Source: Candidatus Tenebribacter burtonii (GTDB taxonomy: Bacteria > Cloacimonadota > Cloacimonadia > Cloacimonadales > TCS61). Taken from it: 64,000 bases of DNA. Below the pieces are notes generated by a model, which saw only the letters and a list, made by a program, of their open reading frames with translations, did not search any database and was not told where the DNA came from. The stretch is from positions 1,716 to 65,715 of the forward strand of contig JAVCCF010000037.1 in the NCBI GenBank assembly GCA_030765625.1, read 5' to 3'. Positions within the stretch are counted from its first letter, which is position 1; each line of letters opens with the position of its first letter. Both the position numbers and the translations under genes were made by a program. Below, one piece after another: positions 9,494-61,699 of the stretch.

Positions 9494-10444
9494 ATGAAAA
9501 AAATCTTAGTTACAGGCTCAGTCGGACAGATCGGTTCGGAATTAACAATGCTATTAAGAGAACTTTATGGTAATGACAATGTAGTAGCAGGTGGAAATAG
9601 AACAAAACCCAGCAGAAAGTTATTAGAATCGGGTCCTTTCGAGATTGTAGATTGTACAAATGTAAAACAACTAGCAAAAACAGTTAAGAAATACAATATT
9701 GATACGATATATCATTTAGCAGCAATACTTTCTGCAGTCGCAGAAGCAAAACCGAATTTAGCTTGGAACGTAAATATCAATGGTTTGTACAACGTTTTAG
9801 AAGTAGCTCGAGAAAATAATTGTGCGGTATTTACTCCAAGTTCTATTGGTGCCTTTGGTCATTCCACCCCTGTAAACAATACTCCCCAAGATACAATTCA
9901 ACGACCAAACACTATGTACGGTGTAACCAAAGTTGCTGGAGAGTTGCTTTGTGATTATTATTTTAAAAGATTTAATGTAGATACGCGTGGTGTAAGGTAT
10001 CCAGGGATTATTTCTAATGAAACTCTTCCTGGAGGTGGAACAACTGATTATGCTGTAGATATATATTATGAAGCAATAAAAAAGAAACAATATACAAGTT
10101 TTCTAAAGGCTGGGACTTTCCTTGATATGATGTATATGCCGGATGCTTTGAAAGCAGCAGTTGACATTATGGAAGCAGATCCTGCTAAACTTATTCATAG
10201 AAATGCTTTCAATATTTCAACAATGAGCTTCGATCCCGAGATGTTAGGTGCTTCGATCCGTAAGCATATTCCTGAATTTAAACTGGATTATGAAGTGGAT
10301 GAAATGCGTCAGGCTATTGCTGATAGCTGGCCAAATAATATGGATGATTCTGCTGCTAAAGGAGAATGGGGCTGGAATTACGATTATAATCTGGCAAAAA
10401 TGACCGAAGATATGTTAAATGTACTATGTAAAAAACTGAAATAA
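9494..10444 (+). CDS. tdh: NAD-dependent epimerase-fold dehydrogenase, probable L-threonine 3-dehydrogenase (short-chain type)
   Basis: Rossmann motif ILVTGSVGQIGSEL and catalytic YGVTK. About 316 aa. kbl lies 1.1 kb downstream on the same strand. Confidence 0.65.
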   Translation: MKKILVTGSVGQIGSELTMLLRELYGNDNVVAGGNRTKPSRKLLESGPFEIVDCTNVKQLAKTVKKYNIDTIYHLAAILSAVAEAKPNLAWNVNINGLYNVLEVARENNCAVFTPSSIGAFGHSTPVNNTPQDTIQRPNTMYGVTKVAGELLCDYYFKRFNVDTRGVRYPGIISNETLPGGGTTDYAVDIYYEAIKKKQYTSFLKAGTFLDMMYMPDALKAAVDIMEADPAKLIHRNAFNISTMSFDPEMLGASIRKHIPEFKLDYEVDEMRQAIADSWPNNMDDSAAKGEWGWNYDYNLAKMTEDMLNVLCKKLK

Positions 10445-31482: not shown

Positions 31483-32134
31483 GTTCCTCTCTTTCCCGTA
31501 CTTAAAGAGAGGGAACATAAGATGCCATTGTGTATTTATGTTTGCGAAAGTAATCCTTCCGAAGGTTATGTAACTTTTAAAATAAGTCTTTGCCTTCGGA
31601 AGGTTATTGCTCATTATATTTCACTTGTATGCAAGTTGAACTTGCATACGCAGCCCAAGTTGATAAGTCCAACTTATCAACAAGAAGAAAGAATTCCAGT
31701 CAAGCTGAGGACGGTGTCCGGCAACTGACGGATGACAAAAAAGGAAAAATAAGTTTTCAAAGGCTTATAAAATGTAATCATCCTAAAAGCCCCTCTCTTT
31801 ATGCGTTGGCTTCGCGGACAGCGAAACACCGCTTGTCTTAACAAGGTTACTATGAAGAGAGGGGTTGGGGTGAGTTCGAGGAAATGTAATCCCCCTTTAG
31901 AAGGGGGAAAGTTCGGCTTAACCGAACAGGGGTTTCTTGAAAATAATACAATTAAAGATGTCGTTTTGCTTCAGTTCCTTCGTCGAATGTCGAAGAAGAT
32001 TTTCTCAGGAAGACGAAGCAAAAAAGGAGATTTATTTGAAAACTAAAACTATTTTTTCACTTGTTTTTAGCTTATTAGTTCTCGCCCCAAACTTCGTATC
32101 GGGGCAAGTCCTAATTTCCCCCTGTCAAGGGGGA
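31483..32134. repeat. intergenic array of at least ten distinct GC-rich stem-loops
   Basis: Examples with perfect stems: 31627-31649 GTATGCAAGT-TGA-ACTTGCATAC; 31659-31681 GTTGATAAGT-CCA-ACTTATCAAC; 31790-31799/31855-31864 CCCCTCTCTT/AAGAGAGGGG (long range); 31890-31908 TCCCCCTT-TAG-AAGGGGGA; 31911-31927; 32117-32134 TCCCCCT-GTCA-AGGGGGA. Also the near-identical 15-mers CCTTC[C/G]GAAGGTTAT at 31555 and 31593. Confidence 0.65.
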
Positions 32135-34527: not shown

Positions 34528-34752
34528 ATCCTTCGATACTTGGCTGAAGCCAAACTCAGGATGACTGATGTAGGGTCAATTCCCCGAATTGATCGATAAG
34601 TAATGTTAGCTTGTTTGAAAATCTACGGGTCAATTCTCCGAATTGACCGGACTAACGGACGATTAGGGATAATCGTCCCTACAGTACACTCTTGTTGATA
34701 AGTTAAACTTATCAACTTAGATTGTGTCCGCTATCCGGCAACTGCCGGATGC
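34528..34752. repeat. second intergenic stem-loop array sharing modules with 31483-32134
   Basis: 34528-34565 is a minus-strand GTCATCCTGAG element (ATCCT/AGGAT stem with inner TTGGC/GCCAA). 23-mers GGGTCAATTC[C/T]CCGAATTGA[T/C]CG at 34573 and 34627 match at 21 of 23. 34657-34678 GGACGATTA-GGGA-TAATCGTCC. 34694-34716 GTTGATAAGT-TAA-ACTTATCAAC has the same stem as 31659. 34724-34752 is homologous to 31713-31736. Confidence 0.65.
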
Positions 34753-55874: not shown

Positions 55875-57503
55875 ATCTGTATCTTCTATAAAGCTGGCGA
55901 TCGTAGGTGATTCCCTTTTGATATCATCCAAAGTAGGATTTGTTATTACTTTCTTACCTTTTACTTCTTCAAGTGTGAAATCAACTTTAATTTTGAGATT
56001 AAAATGTTTTGTAAAAATATCAGAAATAACTTCTTTTTCATTCTTTAATAAGTCATAGGCAAATGAATTAGCTGATACTAAGTGAAGGAAATTGTTAGAT
56101 AAGTTTTGTATATTACAATTAACAAGATAGTTAGACACAATAGGTTTTTGTTTATATAATATTTTTGCAATATCATCTAAACTCTCTTCAACAGCTTCAA
56201 TGGTCAGTTTATCGATCTTGGGTTTTTCTTGTTCTGCCTCTTTTTGAATTTCAGCTTTTACCTCTTCTATTTTTTCATGCATTGTAATAGTTTGTTGCTG
56301 CGGAATTACTACCTTTTCATTCTCAATAGGCTGCATACGAATTGGTTTAACCTTTTTTGTTCCCATATTAATTGGTTCATCTATATTTATCGAATCAATC
56401 AATTTATCAAGAGATTGAAGTTCAGAAAGACGAGATATCTTTATGAATGCCATTTCTACAACAAGAGTGGGATTACTACAGTTTTTAATATCCATTTTGG
56501 TTTTAATAAGTATAGTCATAATGTAAATAAGGTCACCATCCTGGAATTTATCGGATATCTCCAACATTTGCTTTCTGTTGGCTTCTGAGATAGTTGGAAT
56601 GTCGATGTTAAGCTTTAAAAGAAGCAGGTTTCTAATGTAATCAAGTATTCCATTAAGGAATTCTTGTATATCATTACCTTTTTCTAAAATATCATGTAAT
56701 AATTCAATAATACCGGATGCATTTTTTTCTGTAACAAAAAGTAGGATCTTATAAAATACATCGGTGTGAACAATCCCGAAGATCGTGAGTACATCGACAA
56801 GAGAGATATAATCTTTGCCGTAAGCAATAACCTGATCCATCAAAGATAAAGCATCACGCATACTACCGTCAGCTTTTTTACCTATTGCAAATAATGCTTC
56901 GGGATCAATAGATATGTTGTCAATCTTACAAATGGAACTCAATCTATCTATAATTGCAGGAATCGGAATCCTTTTAAAATCAAAGCGTTGACATCTGGAA
57001 ATAATAGTGGGAATAACTTTATGCGGTTCAGTAGTAGCAAAGATGAACACAACGTTTTTCGGAGGTTCTTCCAGAGTTTTAAGAAGTGCATTAAAAGCAT
57101 TCTTAGAAAGCATGTGCACCTCATCAATGATATAAATTTTATTTCGGGAAGTAGATGGTGCGTACATCAGCTCTTTCTGAAGATCACGAATATCTTCTAC
57201 TCCAGTATTAGATGCACCATCGATCTCAATTACATCAGATGAAATTCCTTGCGTTATCTCAGTACAGTTTTGGCAAACATTGCATGGTGTTGTTGTAGGA
57301 CCGTCATTCAAGCAATTCAGGCTTTTTGCAAATATCCTTGCTAATGAAGTCTTACCAACACCTCTAGGTCCTGTGAAAAGATATGCCTGTGCTGTCCTAT
57401 CCATTTCGATTGTGTTCTTAAGTATCTTTGTTATATGATCTTGAGCATATACTTCATCAAAAGTTTGTGGTCTGTATTTCCTTGCTAAAATTAAGTACGC
57501 CAT
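55860..57503 (-). CDS. dnaX: DNA polymerase III subunit gamma/tau
   Basis: AAA+ GPRGVGKTS, Walker B IIDEVHML, zinc module CNVCQNC, sensor SRCQRF. 547 aa. Confidence 0.95.
   Translation of the reverse strand: MAYLILARKYRPQTFDEVYAQDHITKILKNTIEMDRTAQAYLFTGPRGVGKTSLARIFAKSLNCLNDGPTTTPCNVCQNCTEITQGISSDVIEIDGASNTGVEDIRDLQKELMYAPSTSRNKIYIIDEVHMLSKNAFNALLKTLEEPPKNVVFIFATTEPHKVIPTIISRCQRFDFKRIPIPAIIDRLSSICKIDNISIDPEALFAIGKKADGSMRDALSLMDQVIAYGKDYISLVDVLTIFGIVHTDVFYKILLFVTEKNASGIIELLHDILEKGNDIQEFLNGILDYIRNLLLLKLNIDIPTISEANRKQMLEISDKFQDGDLIYIMTILIKTKMDIKNCSNPTLVVEMAFIKISRLSELQSLDKLIDSINIDEPINMGTKKVKPIRMQPIENEKVVIPQQQTITMHEKIEEVKAEIQKEAEQEKPKIDKLTIEAVEESLDDIAKILYKQKPIVSNYLVNCNIQNLSNNFLHLVSANSFAYDLLKNEKEVISDIFTKHFNLKIKVDFTLEEVKGKKVITNPTLDDIKRESPTIASFIEDTDSIIN
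56352..56358 (-). promoter_or_regulatory. candidate -1 programmed ribosomal frameshift heptamer in dnaX
   Basis: Coding strand reads ACA AAA AAG GTT AAA, so A_AAA_AAG sits in the zero frame at codons 382-384. The -1 frame reads AAA AAA GGT TAA, a stop after one extra codon. Confidence 0.4.
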
Positions 57504-57668
57504 TTATTCCTCTTTATCTAATTTTTACTTTTTGGAATTTCCTTTACAGCTTATATTTGTCAATTAAAAATCTTTCAAATATCATTGAAACCGAAATAAC
57601 TTTGTAACTGATTAGAAATTACTTTTTTCTTGACTCTCAAAGCGTGTTTTTTTTCTTCAATTGCATAT

Positions 57669-57755
57669 GCAGAAGTGGCGGAATTGGTAGACGCGCTAGG
57701 TTCAGGGTCTAGTGAGCAATTGCTTGTGGGGGTTCAAGTCCCCCCTTCTGCACCA
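57669..57755 (+). tRNA. tRNA-Leu (anticodon CAG), type II with long variable arm, CCA encoded
   Basis: Acceptor GCAGAAG/CTTCTGC. Anticodon stem CTAGG/TCTAG with loop TTCAGGG. T-arm GGGGG-TTCAAGT-CCCCC. Discriminator A plus CCA. Confidence 0.9.
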
Positions 57756-57765
57756 TATTTATAAA

Positions 57766-58329
57766 TCACATAAAGAATAAATGCTCAATAAGAATTTTCA
57801 ATCCAATTCCGATTAGAACTGTACCCCCGATAAATTCTATCTTATTCTCGAATAATGATCCAAATTTACCACCAAGATAAACACCCAGTAATGAAAGTAA
57901 AAATGTGATTATGCCAATAATTATTGCGGGTTGTATGATTTGAACTTGCAATGCAGAAAAACTAAGTCCTACCGCTAAAGCGTCAATACTGGTGGCAATA
58001 GATAGAACGAATACAGTTATCAAATTATTTGGATCACATTTACTTTCTGCCTTTTCGATCAGGAAAGATTCATAGATCATCTTACCGCCAATAAAAGTAA
58101 GTAAGCCAAAAGCGATCCAGTGATCGAATGCCGCGATGTAGTGTTGGAAACTAGTTCCCGCTAACCAACCTAACACCGGCATGAGTGCCTGAAAGCCACC
58201 AAAGAAGAAAGCAACTCGAAGAGCAGGACGTACTTTGAAACATTTTAAAGTAACTCCACTGGCAATAGAAACAGCAAATGCATCCATTGCTAAACCAAAA
58301 GCAATTAAAATTATTGTAATTATATTCAT
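57766..58329 (-). CDS. mntP: manganese efflux pump MntP family
   Basis: Two homologous halves with the DAFAVS / DALAVG motif. Six TM helices. 187 aa. Confidence 0.85.
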   Translation of the reverse strand: MNIITIILIAFGLAMDAFAVSIASGVTLKCFKVRPALRVAFFFGGFQALMPVLGWLAGTSFQHYIAAFDHWIAFGLLTFIGGKMIYESFLIEKAESKCDPNNLITVFVLSIATSIDALAVGLSFSALQVQIIQPAIIIGIITFLLSLLGVYLGGKFGSLFENKIEFIGGTVLIGIGLKILIEHLFFM

Positions 58330-58402
58330 TCAATCTCCAAAAACAAAACTTGAATTAAAAGATAATTAGTAAATGATTTTATCCTAACTATAAATTTTCC
58401 CT

Positions 58403-58541
58403 CGTTAACAAGTTGTATTTTTCTCATTAACAAGTTGAACTTGTTAACGCTACTGCTTTGTAAGTTTTACTTACGAACTTGTTTATTATGTAAGAAGTAT
58501 AACTTCAATATCAATTGTGTTCGCAAGTGCAACTTGCGAAC
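58403..58541. repeat. periodic array of AAGT-nnn-ACTT-apex hairpins
   Basis: 58427-58447 TTAACAAGT-TGA-ACTTGTTAA. 58457-58477 TTTGTAAGT-TTT-ACTTACGAA (one G-T pair). 58494-58506 GAAGT-ATA-ACTTC. 58519-58541 GTTCGCAAGT-GCA-ACTTGCGAAC. Centres are about 30-33 bp apart. An extra 5' arm copy at 58403-58414 can pair 12 bp with 58438-58449. Confidence 0.65.
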
Positions 58542-58563
58542 AAGAGATGTATAAATTTTGAAC

Positions 58564-58590
58564 TTGACTTTCAATAACTACAATTATAAT
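58564..58590 (+). promoter_or_regulatory. sigma70-like promoter candidate for the antitoxin/NTPase pair
   Basis: TTGACT (58564-58569), 15-nt spacer, TATAAT (58585-58590). The spacer is shorter than optimal. Confidence 0.35.
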
Positions 58591-58608
58591 TTCACAATAG
58601 GTTTAAAA

Positions 58609-58860
58609 ATGAAGACGTACAATATTGAATTAATTGAGAAAAGATTTGAAGAATTAATTGATCTCACTATTGATCATGACAATATTCTTAGAATTAAAAC
58701 CGGCAAAGGTAATGCAATTATAATCTCAGAAACAAAATGGAAATCAATTAAAGAAACTTTATTTCTTCTTTCAATTTCAGGTATGAGAGAATTGATAAAG
58801 AAAGGTATGAACACTCCTCTGGCTGAATGTAGTGAGGAATTGGAGTGGAAGAAAAGTTAG
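58609..58860 (+). CDS. Phd/YefM-family type II antitoxin-like protein
   Basis: 83 aa. MKTYNIELIEKRFEELIDL...GNAIIISETKWKSIKETLFLLSISGMRELIKKGMNTPLAECSEELEW is typical of Phd/YefM antitoxins. Start at ATG 58609 is preferred over the TTG at 58558. Confidence 0.8.
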   Translation: MKTYNIELIEKRFEELIDLTIDHDNILRIKTGKGNAIIISETKWKSIKETLFLLSISGMRELIKKGMNTPLAECSEELEWKKS

Positions 58861-58885
58861 AATTAAAAAAATAAAGGGATTTAAT

Positions 58886-61699
58886 ATGGAATCAATAATA
58901 ATTAAAATAATTGATTTAATTATAACATTTGCTTCAAAATCAATGAAAAAAGATTTTGAAATTGTAAAGTATCTGAAGAAAATGGGATTATTGAAATTAG
59001 AAGCTAATTTTGATTCAAGACTTATACATTCGTTAATTGAATTTGGTAAAAATAAAACTAATCTCAGATTCATTGAAGTTATGAAAGACAAAGTGTTACA
59101 AGAACTATTTCAAAAAGGAATATATGAAAATAAGCTTGATGAGTTTAAGAAAAAGGCTGAATTTACGCTTCATAAGAAATTAGCTTTTGAGAATATTACA
59201 TTGGATATACCATACGAGCAAATTATAGATGATTTTGTTTCAACTTTCGAAACAATTGATAAACAAACAGAAAGCAAAGCAATACTTGATTTTATAAACA
59301 ATACTAACTTGAAATTATTTGAATTATCTGAAACCAACTATAAAAACTCTTTCGAATACAAAATAGAAAAATACTTGGCTCAATTAATTGATGATTTCTA
59401 TAACAAGTTTGTGAATGATGATCTTTATGTAGACTTAAACGGTGTAACTAAAATTAAAACAAAAGTTCATCTGCATACAAAAGGAATAGTAAAAGAGGAG
59501 ATGAATGATAATTCATATGTTGAACTTAAAGCCGTAGCAGAAATAGATTATGAACCAATTGATAAATACATAAATGAATGGTTGGAAAAAGAAAATAAGA
59601 ATTTCCTGATAATCCTTGGAGAATACGGAACAGGCAAATCAACTTTATGTGAATATATTTCCTGTGATCTGGCAAAAGGTAATTTAAATCAGGGTGAACA
59701 AAAGATACAGGACAAAAAGCACAGAAAACCAATAATATTTAACCTGAGAAATTTTAGAAATCAGGGCCTCGAAGCCTTTTTAATATCTGAGTTAAGTATA
59801 AATGTCAATGAAGTATCATTTATTGAATTTAAAGAGAAATTGAAAAATGATGAATTCATATTGATATTTGATGGCTTCGATGAAATGGCAGCAGAAATAG
59901 ATGTAAGGGGGAAAAAAATTAATTTCGATTATATATTCGATATTTTAAAGTTCTATAAAAATAGTAAAATCATACTTACAAGTAGAATTGAATATTTCCA
60001 ATCATTGCAAGAACAATCGGAAGCATTAAAAGTGAATGAAGAAAATGTAGATACTATTTACATTAAATTATTTGAAGAACCTCAGATCTTAAAATTCCTA
60101 GAAAGAATGAAGGGAGAGCCAAATAAGAACTGGAAAGAGATAGAAGCTATTAACGGATTAAAAGATTTAGCAAAGAGACCGGTTCTCTTAAACTTAATCG
60201 TAAAACATTTAATGAAAATTCTTAAAGAAACAAAACAAGAAGTAAAATCGATTGATGTATTCAGTGCTGCCATCGATGATGAACTTAAAGAGATCAGGAA
60301 AAAATTCCGAAAAGATGATAGAGATTATGGAACAGATGACGCTACAAGGATGAGAATCTTACAGAAGGTTTGTATATCTCTTTTCATCAAAAATCAACTA
60401 AGCATTCCAATTATAGAAATAGCAGATTATGCTAAAAATGATCCTGATTTAAAAAATAAAAACGCAGCACAAATAGAAAACTATCTGACAAATTTCCATA
60501 CTTACACTTTCTTTGCTAGAGATAAAGATGATATTTTTAGAATATCACATAAAGCATTTATAGATTATCTGGCAGCAAAAGAGTTATATGAAGAAATTAC
60601 AAGCAATAAACCAGTGAACTTCGGGAAACAACAAATCAATGTTGCTATAATTCACTTTATCTTCGAAATGAAACCAAGTAAAACCAAATTGAAAAGATTA
60701 TTTAAAACTGCAGCAGAAACAACAGAAAAAACCAAATGGCAAAAAAGCAATGCAGTTAATTTAATTTTGAAAATTGATAATCCTCGATATGCTGGCAATG
60801 TCGATTTCAATTCAAGTGAAGTAAATTTGGAAAATTCTTATTTATATAATATTGATATTTTGATTGAATTGGAAAAATTAACAAATCTAAATTTAGCTAA
60901 GAATCAAATCAGCAACATATCACCACTACAGGAATTGAAGACTTTAGTTAGTTTAGATTTAAATAATAACCAAATCAGCGACCTATCACCGCTACAGGAT
61001 TTGAAGAATTTGACTATTATTGATTTGTCTATAAATAGAATCCGCAACCTAAAACCATTACATGGTTTGATAAACTTAATAAGTTTAGACTTATTCATGA
61101 ATAAAATTACAGACATTAAACCTTTGATTAATTTAAGGAATTTACAAAGTTTAAGTTTAGTAGGCAATGAGATCAATAATATTGAGATTTTGAAAGATTT
61201 TATTTATTTAGAGACTTTATTTTTAGCTGGTAATCAAATTAATGATATCAAGTCTTTGAGAGAATTAAAGACGTTAAAATGCTTAACTTTATCATACAAC
61301 CAAATCATCGATATCAAACCTCTGATAGGTTTAAAAAAACTTACTGATTTGAACTTACGTAATAATCGATTAAATAACATCGAATCTTTGAGAGAATTGA
61401 AGAATTTATTGTTTTTATGTTTAACAACAAATCAGATTAATGATATTGGACATTTGAAAGATCTGAAAAATTTAACAACTTTAGAACTTGCTTACAATCA
61501 AATTTGTGACATTCAACCTTTGAAAAATATGAAAAAGTTACAGCGTTTAATACTATCAATGAATAAAATTAATAATATTGATACTCTGAAAGAATTAAAA
61601 AATTTAACTGAATTATTAATAACTGGAAATCCACTTAAATCCTCTCAAATAGAAGAATTGAGGAAAGCTCTGCCCAAAACAAATATCGAATTTTATTAA
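58886..61699 (+). CDS. NACHT-type STAND NTPase with unassigned N-terminal domain and 12 C-terminal leucine-rich repeats (bacterial NLR-like)
   Basis: ATG 58886 lies 7 nt after AAGGGA; an alternative GTG at 58832 would overlap the antitoxin. Walker A GEYGTGKST (59618-59644). Walker B ILIFDGFDEM (59858-59887). ILTSR, KRPVLLNL, FRISHKAFIDYLAA. Then 12 x 22-aa LRRs. Confidence 0.8.
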   Translation: MESIIIKIIDLIITFASKSMKKDFEIVKYLKKMGLLKLEANFDSRLIHSLIEFGKNKTNLRFIEVMKDKVLQELFQKGIYENKLDEFKKKAEFTLHKKLAFENITLDIPYEQIIDDFVSTFETIDKQTESKAILDFINNTNLKLFELSETNYKNSFEYKIEKYLAQLIDDFYNKFVNDDLYVDLNGVTKIKTKVHLHTKGIVKEEMNDNSYVELKAVAEIDYEPIDKYINEWLEKENKNFLIILGEYGTGKSTLCEYISCDLAKGNLNQGEQKIQDKKHRKPIIFNLRNFRNQGLEAFLISELSINVNEVSFIEFKEKLKNDEFILIFDGFDEMAAEIDVRGKKINFDYIFDILKFYKNSKIILTSRIEYFQSLQEQSEALKVNEENVDTIYIKLFEEPQILKFLERMKGEPNKNWKEIEAINGLKDLAKRPVLLNLIVKHLMKILKETKQEVKSIDVFSAAIDDELKEIRKKFRKDDRDYGTDDATRMRILQKVCISLFIKNQLSIPIIEIADYAKNDPDLKNKNAAQIENYLTNFHTYTFFARDKDDIFRISHKAFIDYLAAKELYEEITSNKPVNFGKQQINVAIIHFIFEMKPSKTKLKRLFKTAAETTEKTKWQKSNAVNLILKIDNPRYAGNVDFNSSEVNLENSYLYNIDILIELEKLTNLNLAKNQISNISPLQELKTLVSLDLNNNQISDLSPLQDLKNLTIIDLSINRIRNLKPLHGLINLISLDLFMNKITDIKPLINLRNLQSLSLVGNEINNIEILKDFIYLETLFLAGNQINDIKSLRELKTLKCLTLSYNQIIDIKPLIGLKKLTDLNLRNNRLNNIESLRELKNLLFLCLTTNQINDIGHLKDLKNLTTLELAYNQICDIQPLKNMKKLQRLILSMNKINNIDTLKELKNLTELLITGNPLKSSQIEELRKALPKTNIEFY
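60869..61660 (+). repeat. 12 tandem 66-bp coding repeats (22-residue LRR units)
   Basis: Units of the form LxxLxxLxLxxNxIxDIxPLxx, e.g. LKTLVSLDLNNNQISDLSPLQD and LKNLTTLELAYNQICDIQPLKN. Confidence 0.9.

Follow-up and report, generated by a model that had tools for sequence, protein, structure and literature searches.

The window analysed here is a stretch of 64,000 nucleotides (64 kb) from Candidatus Tenebribacter burtonii, a member of the Cloacimonadota. Within it, four stem-loops that share an AAGT-nnn-ACTT apex span positions 58427-58542, at a site between the promoter block of mntP and the promoter of the divergent Phd-like and NACHT genes. The hairpins are named H1 to H4, and the four together are referred to as the tetrad. 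In window coordinates, the features of the locus are as follows.

57766-58329, minus strand: mntP (Pfam Mntp, 180 bits)
58396-58550, plus strand: the whole tetrad array of putative REP type, comprising a left-end duplication, H1, H2, H3, H4 and the terminal GAAC-AAG
58396-58417, plus strand: left-end tandem duplicate with the H1 5' arm, TTTCCCTCGTTAACAAGTTGTA, both a direct and an inverted repeat
58427-58449, plus strand: H1, TTAACAAGT-TGA-ACTTGTTAA, then CG
58457-58477, plus strand: H2, TTTGTAAGT-TTT-ACTTACGAA, imperfect with one mismatch
58494-58506, plus strand: H3, GAAGT-ATA-ACTTC, with a stem of only 5 bp
58518-58542, plus strand: H4, TGTTCGCAAGT-GCA-ACTTGCGAACA, with a perfect 11-bp stem
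58609-58860, plus strand: Phd/YefM-like gene of 83 amino acids (Pfam PF02604, 28 bits, just below the cut-off of 29.8)
58886-61699, plus strand: STAND NTPase gene with NACHT and LRR domains (Pfam NACHT and LRR_4)

The initial annotation had described the neighbours of the hairpins as MntP, a Phd-like protein of 83 amino acids and an NTPase, and these assignments stand. The closest match to the window MntP is the protein of Candidatus Tenebribacter davisii (89% identity). Directly upstream of mntP, a block with the sequence ATAAAWTCATTTACTAWTTAT...AGTTTTGTT (58330-58380, minus strand) is kept in seven of seven Cloacimonadota relatives (L001-L007), and it is probably a promoter and/or a metal-regulator site. 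On the other side of the array, a TTGACT box is found at 58564-58569, about 15-20 bp from the array end, and the -10 region of the promoter of the Phd-like gene overlaps with a perfect palindrome, AATTATAATT (58582-58591). A PADLOC search with the Phd-like and NACHT proteins gave only a weak mad8 match, which is irrelevant to the hairpins.

Structurally, the apex centres of the four hairpins follow one another at 30, 33 and 30 bp. H1 (hairpin proper 58427-58447) has a perfect stem of 9-10 bp and a TGA loop, and the arms of H2 are 9 nt each with 89% complementarity. H1 and H4 are palindromes of 21-25 nt with perfect stems of 9-11 bp. A repeat finder and a separate palindrome scan agree on the hairpin arms, and both place the four AAGT/ACTT stem-loops, with their 30-33 bp spacing, where the initial annotation had put them. 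Its proposed 12-bp pairing of 58403-58414 with 58438-58449 is likewise exact, and the minimum-free-energy DNA fold chooses this outer arm. What had been described as a duplicated arm is indeed a duplication, yet not a simple arm: it is a 22-nt tandem duplication of the array left end (58396-58417 and 58418-58439, 82% identical), in which the outer copy has the consensus CGTTAAC foot and the inner copy has CATTAAC.

When folded as single-stranded DNA, the region 58396-58556 reaches -27.3 kcal/mol compared to -12.6 ± 2.7 for shuffled sequences (z = -5.5), and the minimum-free-energy fold consists of separate local stems. The RNA fold of the minus strand is also more stable than expected (z = -6.2). 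Two genomes independently show a hairpin arm that is partly duplicated in tandem at the end of an array, namely the H4 arm in the relative L109 (approximately 9920-9964) and the H1 arm in the window (58396-58439). These duplications could be scars of processing by the transposase described below or of slippage.

The apex motif is not confined to this array. The sequence AAGTNNNACTT occurs seven times in the window versus 1.65 expected, a number reached in none of 100 shuffles. Four of the seven occurrences constitute the array, and the other three (31633, 31665 and 34700), which the initial annotation had missed, form hairpins with 10-bp stems in two other intergenic regions:

31627-31681, plus strand: hairpin doublet of the same superfamily, GTATGCAAGT-TGA-ACTTGCATAC and GTTGATAAGT-CCA-ACTTATCAAC, 32 bp apart, ending in AACAAG
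34694-34716, plus strand: solo hairpin of the same superfamily, GTTGATAAGT-TAA-ACTTATCAAC

Each site follows the gene of a large protein whose C-terminal tail is short and basic. Hairpins of the GTTGAT type accompany H4 in four relatives (L089, L092, L093 and L101). Seven perfect palindromes with a stem of at least 9 bp and a 3-nt loop are present in the window, five of which carry the AAGT/ACTT apex.

A second small hairpin, (T)CCGGCAACTG(A/C)CGGAT, is located at 31715-31735 and 34733-34750, near the AAGT-apex hairpins, and a form of it, caggcaactgctgg, occurs just past the arrays of L097, L098 and L100. This conserved element may represent a further unit within this mosaic family. The spacers 31547-31600 and 34570-34680 are themselves rich in repeats, with further unrelated palindromes and direct repeats such as CCTTCCGAAGG...CCTTCGGAAGG, two copies of GGGTCAATTCyCCGAATTGAyCG, and GGACGATTA-ggga-TAATCGTCC.

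Among 80 mntP loci from many phyla, clusters of the motif were found at only two loci, both from Cloacimonadota and again with a spacing of about 30 bp. One relative (L003) carries all four hairpin types with the same order and flanks as in the window (CTC before H1 and AAG after H4). The tetrad recurs outside genes as a unit with constant ends, present at some orthologous sites and absent from others. It measures approximately 130 bp, runs H1-H2-H3-H4 and begins with CT-CGTT... and ends with ...GAAC-AAG. This order, the 30/33/30 spacing and the termini recur in L003, L087 (two copies), L104 (two copies), L091 and L105-L108, and shorter versions with the same termini occur as three- and two-hairpin arrays in L097-L102 and L088-L094. 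A profile HMM built from the arrays of relatives matches window positions 58417-58550 with an E-value of 4.6e-36.

Only 18 contigs were recovered in a metagenome scan with the exact H4 pattern. Three array or hairpin loci were counted in the 64-kb window, and two to three in several contigs of 7-10 kb. None of 23 arrays lies inside a credible gene (ORF of at least 100 amino acids), and the only overlaps with ORFs involve start-extended ORF calls (two, in L006) and the 3' end of a gene for a REP-associated tyrosine transposase (RAYT) in L105.

The window array can be aligned with nine others, and 96% of the cells in this ten-array alignment are paired. Changes on both sides of a stem affect five pairs and 12 cells, as compared to 0-1 double-change cells when the pairing partners are slid by 1-3 columns. 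The H1 type is conserved in all ten arrays with compensatory changes at three pairs (GTTAAC, GTTACG, GTTTAC), and the H2 type, GTAAGT-TTY-ACTTAC, is present in the seven four-hairpin arrays. In H3, the arms GAAGT/ACTTC are invariant (10 of 10), with a loop of AYA, or TAA in three-hairpin arrays. H4 shows a G-C to A-U compensatory substitution in four of the ten arrays (GTTCGC, GTTCAC). Judged from the alignment, these changes support hairpin formation but fall short of proof, as shared ancestry may contribute and a symmetric binding site in double-stranded DNA would give the same pattern.

The tags by which known repetitive extragenic palindromes (REPs) are recognized were also sought. The canonical tag, GT[AG]G (PMC3733652, PMC6006769), is absent from the 5' side of the repeats. 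A GTAG next to H1 on the minus strand is present only in the window and is not conserved in other copies. Assignment to the canonical GTAG superfamily was rejected on the basis of the CT-CGTT flank, which is conserved on the 5' side of all copies. The CGTC tag was likewise looked for in the repeats and not found.

Comparison of orthologous sites shows how the array relates to its surroundings. When 58396-58547 is removed from the window in silico, the remaining spacer aligns colinearly with that of the relative L007 in a pairwise alignment. The promoter block aaacctattgtgaaatt...gtcaagt is shared by L007 and the window, and L007 has it without the array. No array is found in the leuS-mntP or NACHT-mntP spacers of L001-L007 and L104, and the block upstream of mntP remains intact in the window despite the insertion. 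A second site of this kind is located after a small membrane-protein gene, where L003 has an array and L104 has none. All six contigs of the window population that encode an identical MntP carry the array. These alignments indicate that the array belongs to a dispersed repeat family and entered the spacer as an insert of about 150 bp, independently of the islet between leuS and mntP.

Within this clade, the leuS-mntP spacer carries variable cargo, which in the window is the Phd-like gene plus the NACHT-LRR gene. The spacer is empty in L002, L003, L004 and L006, where leuS, a terminator and mntP follow one another without hairpins within approximately 110-160 bp (L002, L003 and L004), or within about 310 bp in L006. 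A homologous NACHT-LRR gene is present at this site in L005 and L007, without the Phd-like gene and without the array. The promoter block 58555-58612 is common to the window and L007; it directly drives the NACHT gene in L007, and in the window the Phd-like gene is located between the block and the NACHT gene. In L001 and L104, the site is occupied by another pair of small genes, with GTACGTTTAAACGTAC (L104) or GTACGTTATAACGTAC (L001) in its promoter. Four of the six short contigs with identical MntP (L081-L084) stop inside leuS, approximately 500-640 bp from its 3' end, which suggests strain heterogeneity or an assembly break.

The NACHT-LRR gene is thus cargo of the leuS-mntP islet, and both it and the Phd-like gene are outside the repeat element. 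The array is not specific to the islet, because relatives with the NACHT-LRR gene also lack it. Of the three suggestions in the initial annotation, a repeat family marking an insertion junction comes closest and is borne out in a more specific form, with the array itself being the inserted element; a role as insulator or cruciform, likewise suggested there, is hypothetical. What the initial annotation had named as evidence against an association with the islet, the same hairpins beside mntP in islet-less relatives, was not seen, as L002, L003, L004 and L006 have a plain leuS-mntP spacer.

In relatives, the tetrad is found on both sides of a RAYT gene or is split around it. An ORF in L006 divides the tetrad in the arrangement H1-H2, ORF, H4'-H3-H4. 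This ORF is a RAYT gene, with scores of 109 bits for NCBIfam NF047646 (REP-associated tyrosine transposase) and 25.6 bits for Pfam Y1_Tnp. In the Cloacimonadota relatives, the gene encodes 179 amino acids and is flanked or enclosed by the tetrad (L006/L096, L087, L104, L105-L108 and L109). Complete tetrads in direct orientation lie on each side of the gene in L087 and L104, whose RAYT proteins are 67-68% identical to that of L006. L105-L108 have a tetrad upstream and H2-H1 downstream, and their protein is 85% identical to that of L104. In L109, the arrangement H4-H3-RAYT-H2-H1 is found at a different genomic site (62% identity). Since the gene resides inside the tetrad in L006 and L109, the gene-less tetrad corresponds to the joined ends of a RAYT cassette.

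Six RAYT proteins score 102-112 bits with NF047646, above its cut-off of 80, and only 21-22 bits with the IS200 model NF033573, which has a cut-off of 55. Alignment of the six shows invariant H60xH62 and Y138xHxNPVR motifs, corresponding to the HUH motif and the catalytic tyrosine. The best match in the PDB is E. coli TnpAREP (4ER8), with which the HUH and YIxxNPV motifs are aligned.

In relatives with 67-85% identity, the RAYT gene occupies a syntenic position between a small gene and a gene for an HI0933-like flavoprotein, upstream of leuS. Such a pattern has been described for vertically inherited RAYTs (PMC5581495). No RAYT gene is present in the 64-kb window, and from synteny that of the window genome should lie approximately 1 kb past the window end; the contigs recovered with an identical MntP measure 8.4 kb or less, and none extends to that point. 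The contigs with the closest RAYT (P0004) belong to a relative at 79-84% nucleotide identity and not to the window genome.

The RAYT subfamily, with proteins of approximately 177-179 amino acids, comprises 462 clusters at E < 1e-10 from Cloacimonadota, Scalindua/Planctomycetota, Hydrogenedentes, Nitrospinae and others, and several members bear the JGI label 'REP element-mobilizing transposase RayT'. Homologues in Scalindua and Hydrogenedentes (52-54% identity) are flanked by hairpins of the form CT-CGTTCCCAAGC-loop-GCTTGGGAACG-AG, with the consensus CT-CGTTCCCAA(A/G)C-loop-G(T/C)TTGGGAACG-AG. H4 is the hairpin type of the array that most resembles these RAYT-flanking REPs of other phyla. It matches CGTTCCCAAGC of L111 at 8 of 11 stem positions, and has in common with the cross-phylum hairpins the foot CT-CGTT...AACG-AG and a CAAG/CTTG near the apex. 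This apparent co-inheritance of enzyme and hairpins across phyla is the strongest argument for RAYT acting on the hairpins. At the Scalindua locus L110 (14233-15171), the 178-amino-acid RAYT is encoded within a type I restriction-modification cluster, and a second, longer Y1_Tnp protein (312 amino acids) is encoded 4 kb away.

In its basic organization the tetrad is that of a REP/BIME-RAYT system, but it departs from the canonical form in its details. Like E. coli REP/BIME elements and their TnpAREP (the REPtron; PDB 4ER8), it combines several palindrome sub-types in mosaic extragenic clusters with a single HUH/Y1 RAYT flanked by them. The HUH and YxxxNP motifs of E. coli TnpAREP are found in the Cloacimonadota RAYT, and a CT dinucleotide is present beside the hairpin foot in both systems; CT is the cleavage site of the E. 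coli enzyme (PMC3479197). The differences are that the tetrad has a CT-CGTT foot instead of a 5' GTAG tag, that its stems are largely perfect with 3-nt loops whereas those of E. coli are bulged and imperfect, and that its hairpins keep one fixed direct order, H1-H4, unlike the alternating inverted Y and Z units of E. coli BIMEs. Similarity between the RAYT protein and 4ER8 is low (29 bits).

REPINs of Pseudomonas and enterobacteria, associated with RAYT groups 2 and 3 (Bertels and Rainey), are non-autonomous elements whose copying is attributed to a vertically inherited RAYT, present in a single copy and itself flanked by such units (PMC3116915, PMC5581495). The tetrad is similarly a non-autonomous unit of REP hairpins with a flanked RAYT. 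However, a REPIN consists of two inverted REPs that form one long hairpin, whereas the tetrad consists of four different hairpins in a fixed direct order that form separate local stems in the DNA fold, and identity with REPINs was rejected for these reasons. Furthermore, REPINs typically exist in hundreds of copies, whereas the tetrad was counted only in the 64-kb window and in metagenome contigs.

The CGTC-tagged REPs (Di Nocera et al. 2013, PMC3733652) share with the tetrad a C-, G- and T-rich foot tag at the 5' side that is unpaired or partly paired, a stem of 8-11 bp and an occurrence in deep-branching phyla. The tetrad differs from these in its tag, CTCGTT, of which GTT belongs to the stem, in its loops of 3 nt rather than 4-5 nt, and in lacking a CCA tail. 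The CGTC repeats were reported without a dedicated transposase (PMC3733652), whereas tetrads flank RAYT. Atypical REPs that lack GTAG have also been reported for one RAYT subclass (PMC6006769).

Taken together, we consider it quite probable (approximately 0.8) that the four hairpins are a copy of a non-autonomous, REP/BIME-like composite repeat of a RAYT (HUH/Y1) family that is mobilized via single-stranded hairpins. Several observations sit uneasily with this REP/RAYT explanation. There is no RAYT gene in the 64-kb window, the counts from the window and the metagenome (three loci in 64 kb and 18 contigs) do not amount to the high abundance that is a hallmark of REPs, the canonical 5' GT[AG]G tag is missing, and the hairpins are arranged in direct order rather than as inverted REPIN doublets. 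The compensatory changes in the palindromes would also fit a symmetric site in double-stranded DNA.

The initial annotation had proposed that the hairpins could be operator sites. The array would then consist of duplex binding sites for the Phd-like protein, acting in autoregulation, or for another dimeric regulator of mntP or of the divergent pair. In favour of this, the AAGT-N3-ACTT core forms a palindrome of 11 bp that recurs about every three helical turns, and the array ends close to the TTGACT box. However, the tetrad is found at no fewer than ten other loci without a nearby Phd-like gene, including identical copies beside unrelated genes (flavoprotein, RAYT, the small membrane-protein gene and others). 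Moreover, the array is missing from the homologous promoter block in L007, and all of L001-L007 keep the mntP upstream block without an array at this site. These findings led us to reject a Phd/YefM operator identity. The array also stops upstream of the -35 element without overlapping the promoter, its outer stems covary in a way that a fixed protein specificity would not need, and AATTATAATT at the -10 region is the more conventional candidate for an antitoxin operator. An operator array is the least probable of the explanations considered. A role of the hairpins in RNA, as intercistronic stabilizers or attenuators selected in transcripts like transcribed REPs, is scarcely more probable, despite the stable minus-strand RNA fold and the location of the arrays of L087, L104 and L105 between co-directional genes, 12-25 nt from start or stop codons. 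Both conserved promoter blocks have the window array on their upstream side, so that it is probably in neither mRNA. The arrays are oriented differently with respect to the genes around them, and a role in RNA would come on top of a REP origin, not in place of it.

Searches for known RNA and promoter elements bear on the same question. With Rfam 15 covariance models, only tRNA-Leu passes in 57500-59000 and nothing in 58330-58610 is above chance; thus, known Rfam families, including a yybP-ykoY manganese riboswitch upstream of mntP, were rejected. An intrinsic terminator was likewise rejected, given that a scan of 58330-58610 found no terminator-like site and that no T-run (U-run in RNA) follows any of the four stems. 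Counts from promoter and terminator scans are the same as for shuffles. A sigma-70-like match within the array (58514 to 58485, minus strand) is apparently not conserved in other copies, as judged by eye, and a GC-skew profile for strand bias relative to replication was uninformative at the scale of the window.

A closer relation of the REP/RAYT explanation is a miniature (PATE/MITE-like) of an active IS200/IS605-type insertion sequence, with H4/H3 as its left end and H2/H1 as its right end. The tetrad shares with IS200/IS605 elements the subterminal hairpins on one strand at both ends, and gene-less miniatures of those elements keep both ends. The gene of L006 and L109 is bracketed by H4-H3 and H2-H1 in the manner of left end, tnpA and right end, the hairpins of both sides are on the same strand, and the protein matches Pfam Y1_Tnp. 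A Y1 HUH enzyme recognizes and nicks single-stranded DNA in IS200/IS605, and by analogy might do the same in the tetrad system. However, the protein scores above the cut-off of the RAYT equivalog model and below that of the IS200 model, and the gene is syntenic and apparently single copy in relatives instead of scattered in multiple copies, which led us to reject an IS200/IS605 identity. In L087 and L104, moreover, complete tetrads and not half-arrays flank the gene. We regard such a miniature as improbable, albeit somewhat less so than an operator or an RNA element.

Under the preferred explanation, a REP-like repeat moved by RAYT, the palindromes would extrude as hairpins when the DNA is single stranded, for example at the replication fork. 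IS200/IS605 TnpA and E. coli TnpAREP bind single-stranded DNA hairpins and cleave at a short site defined by a guide (PMC3479197). RAYT presumably recognizes the common CAAGT/ACTTG apex and the CGTT foot, then nicks and rejoins the DNA beside the foot, such that an array without a RAYT gene is copied or moved. The candidate nick site, by analogy with E. coli TnpAREP, is the conserved CT directly 5' of CGTT. In the window, the array would have inserted into the stretch separating the mntP promoter block from the Phd-like/NACHT operon promoter, with the 22-nt arm duplication as a possible by-product of RAYT processing or slippage. Effects on the two flanking promoters, if any, are putatively secondary.

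We tentatively propose a broader interpretation that is rather less likely to be correct than not. The tetrad might be an example of a distinct REP architecture, hitherto undescribed, that belongs to a single widespread RAYT subfamily with proteins of about 178 amino acids (Cloacimonadota, Scalindua/Planctomycetota, Hydrogenedentota, Nitrospinota and others). This architecture would have a CT-CGTT...AACG-AG foot instead of GTAG and a CAAG/CTTG apex, and the ordered four-hairpin block of Cloacimonadota would correspond to the ends of the RAYT cassette, moving together.

The array is an ordinary and expected kind of bacterial repeat, and its hairpins are no basis for regulon or toxin-antitoxin models in annotation. 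It marks the leuS-mntP spacer as a variable site, and may explain why assemblies of the window population fragment nearby. The findings document a REP/RAYT pair in Cloacimonadota; our literature search surfaced no description of such a pair, with one unopened anaerobic-digester genome paper containing both terms. The CT-CGTT foot, common to the RAYT-flanking hairpins of other phyla, should be of use to repeat-finding programs that depend on GT[AG]G. If the broader interpretation is true, these repeats would make up a third class of REPs as defined by tag, with an enzyme of their own, and their perfect triloop hairpins and small RAYT would offer a compact system for studying substrate choice and copying by RAYTs.
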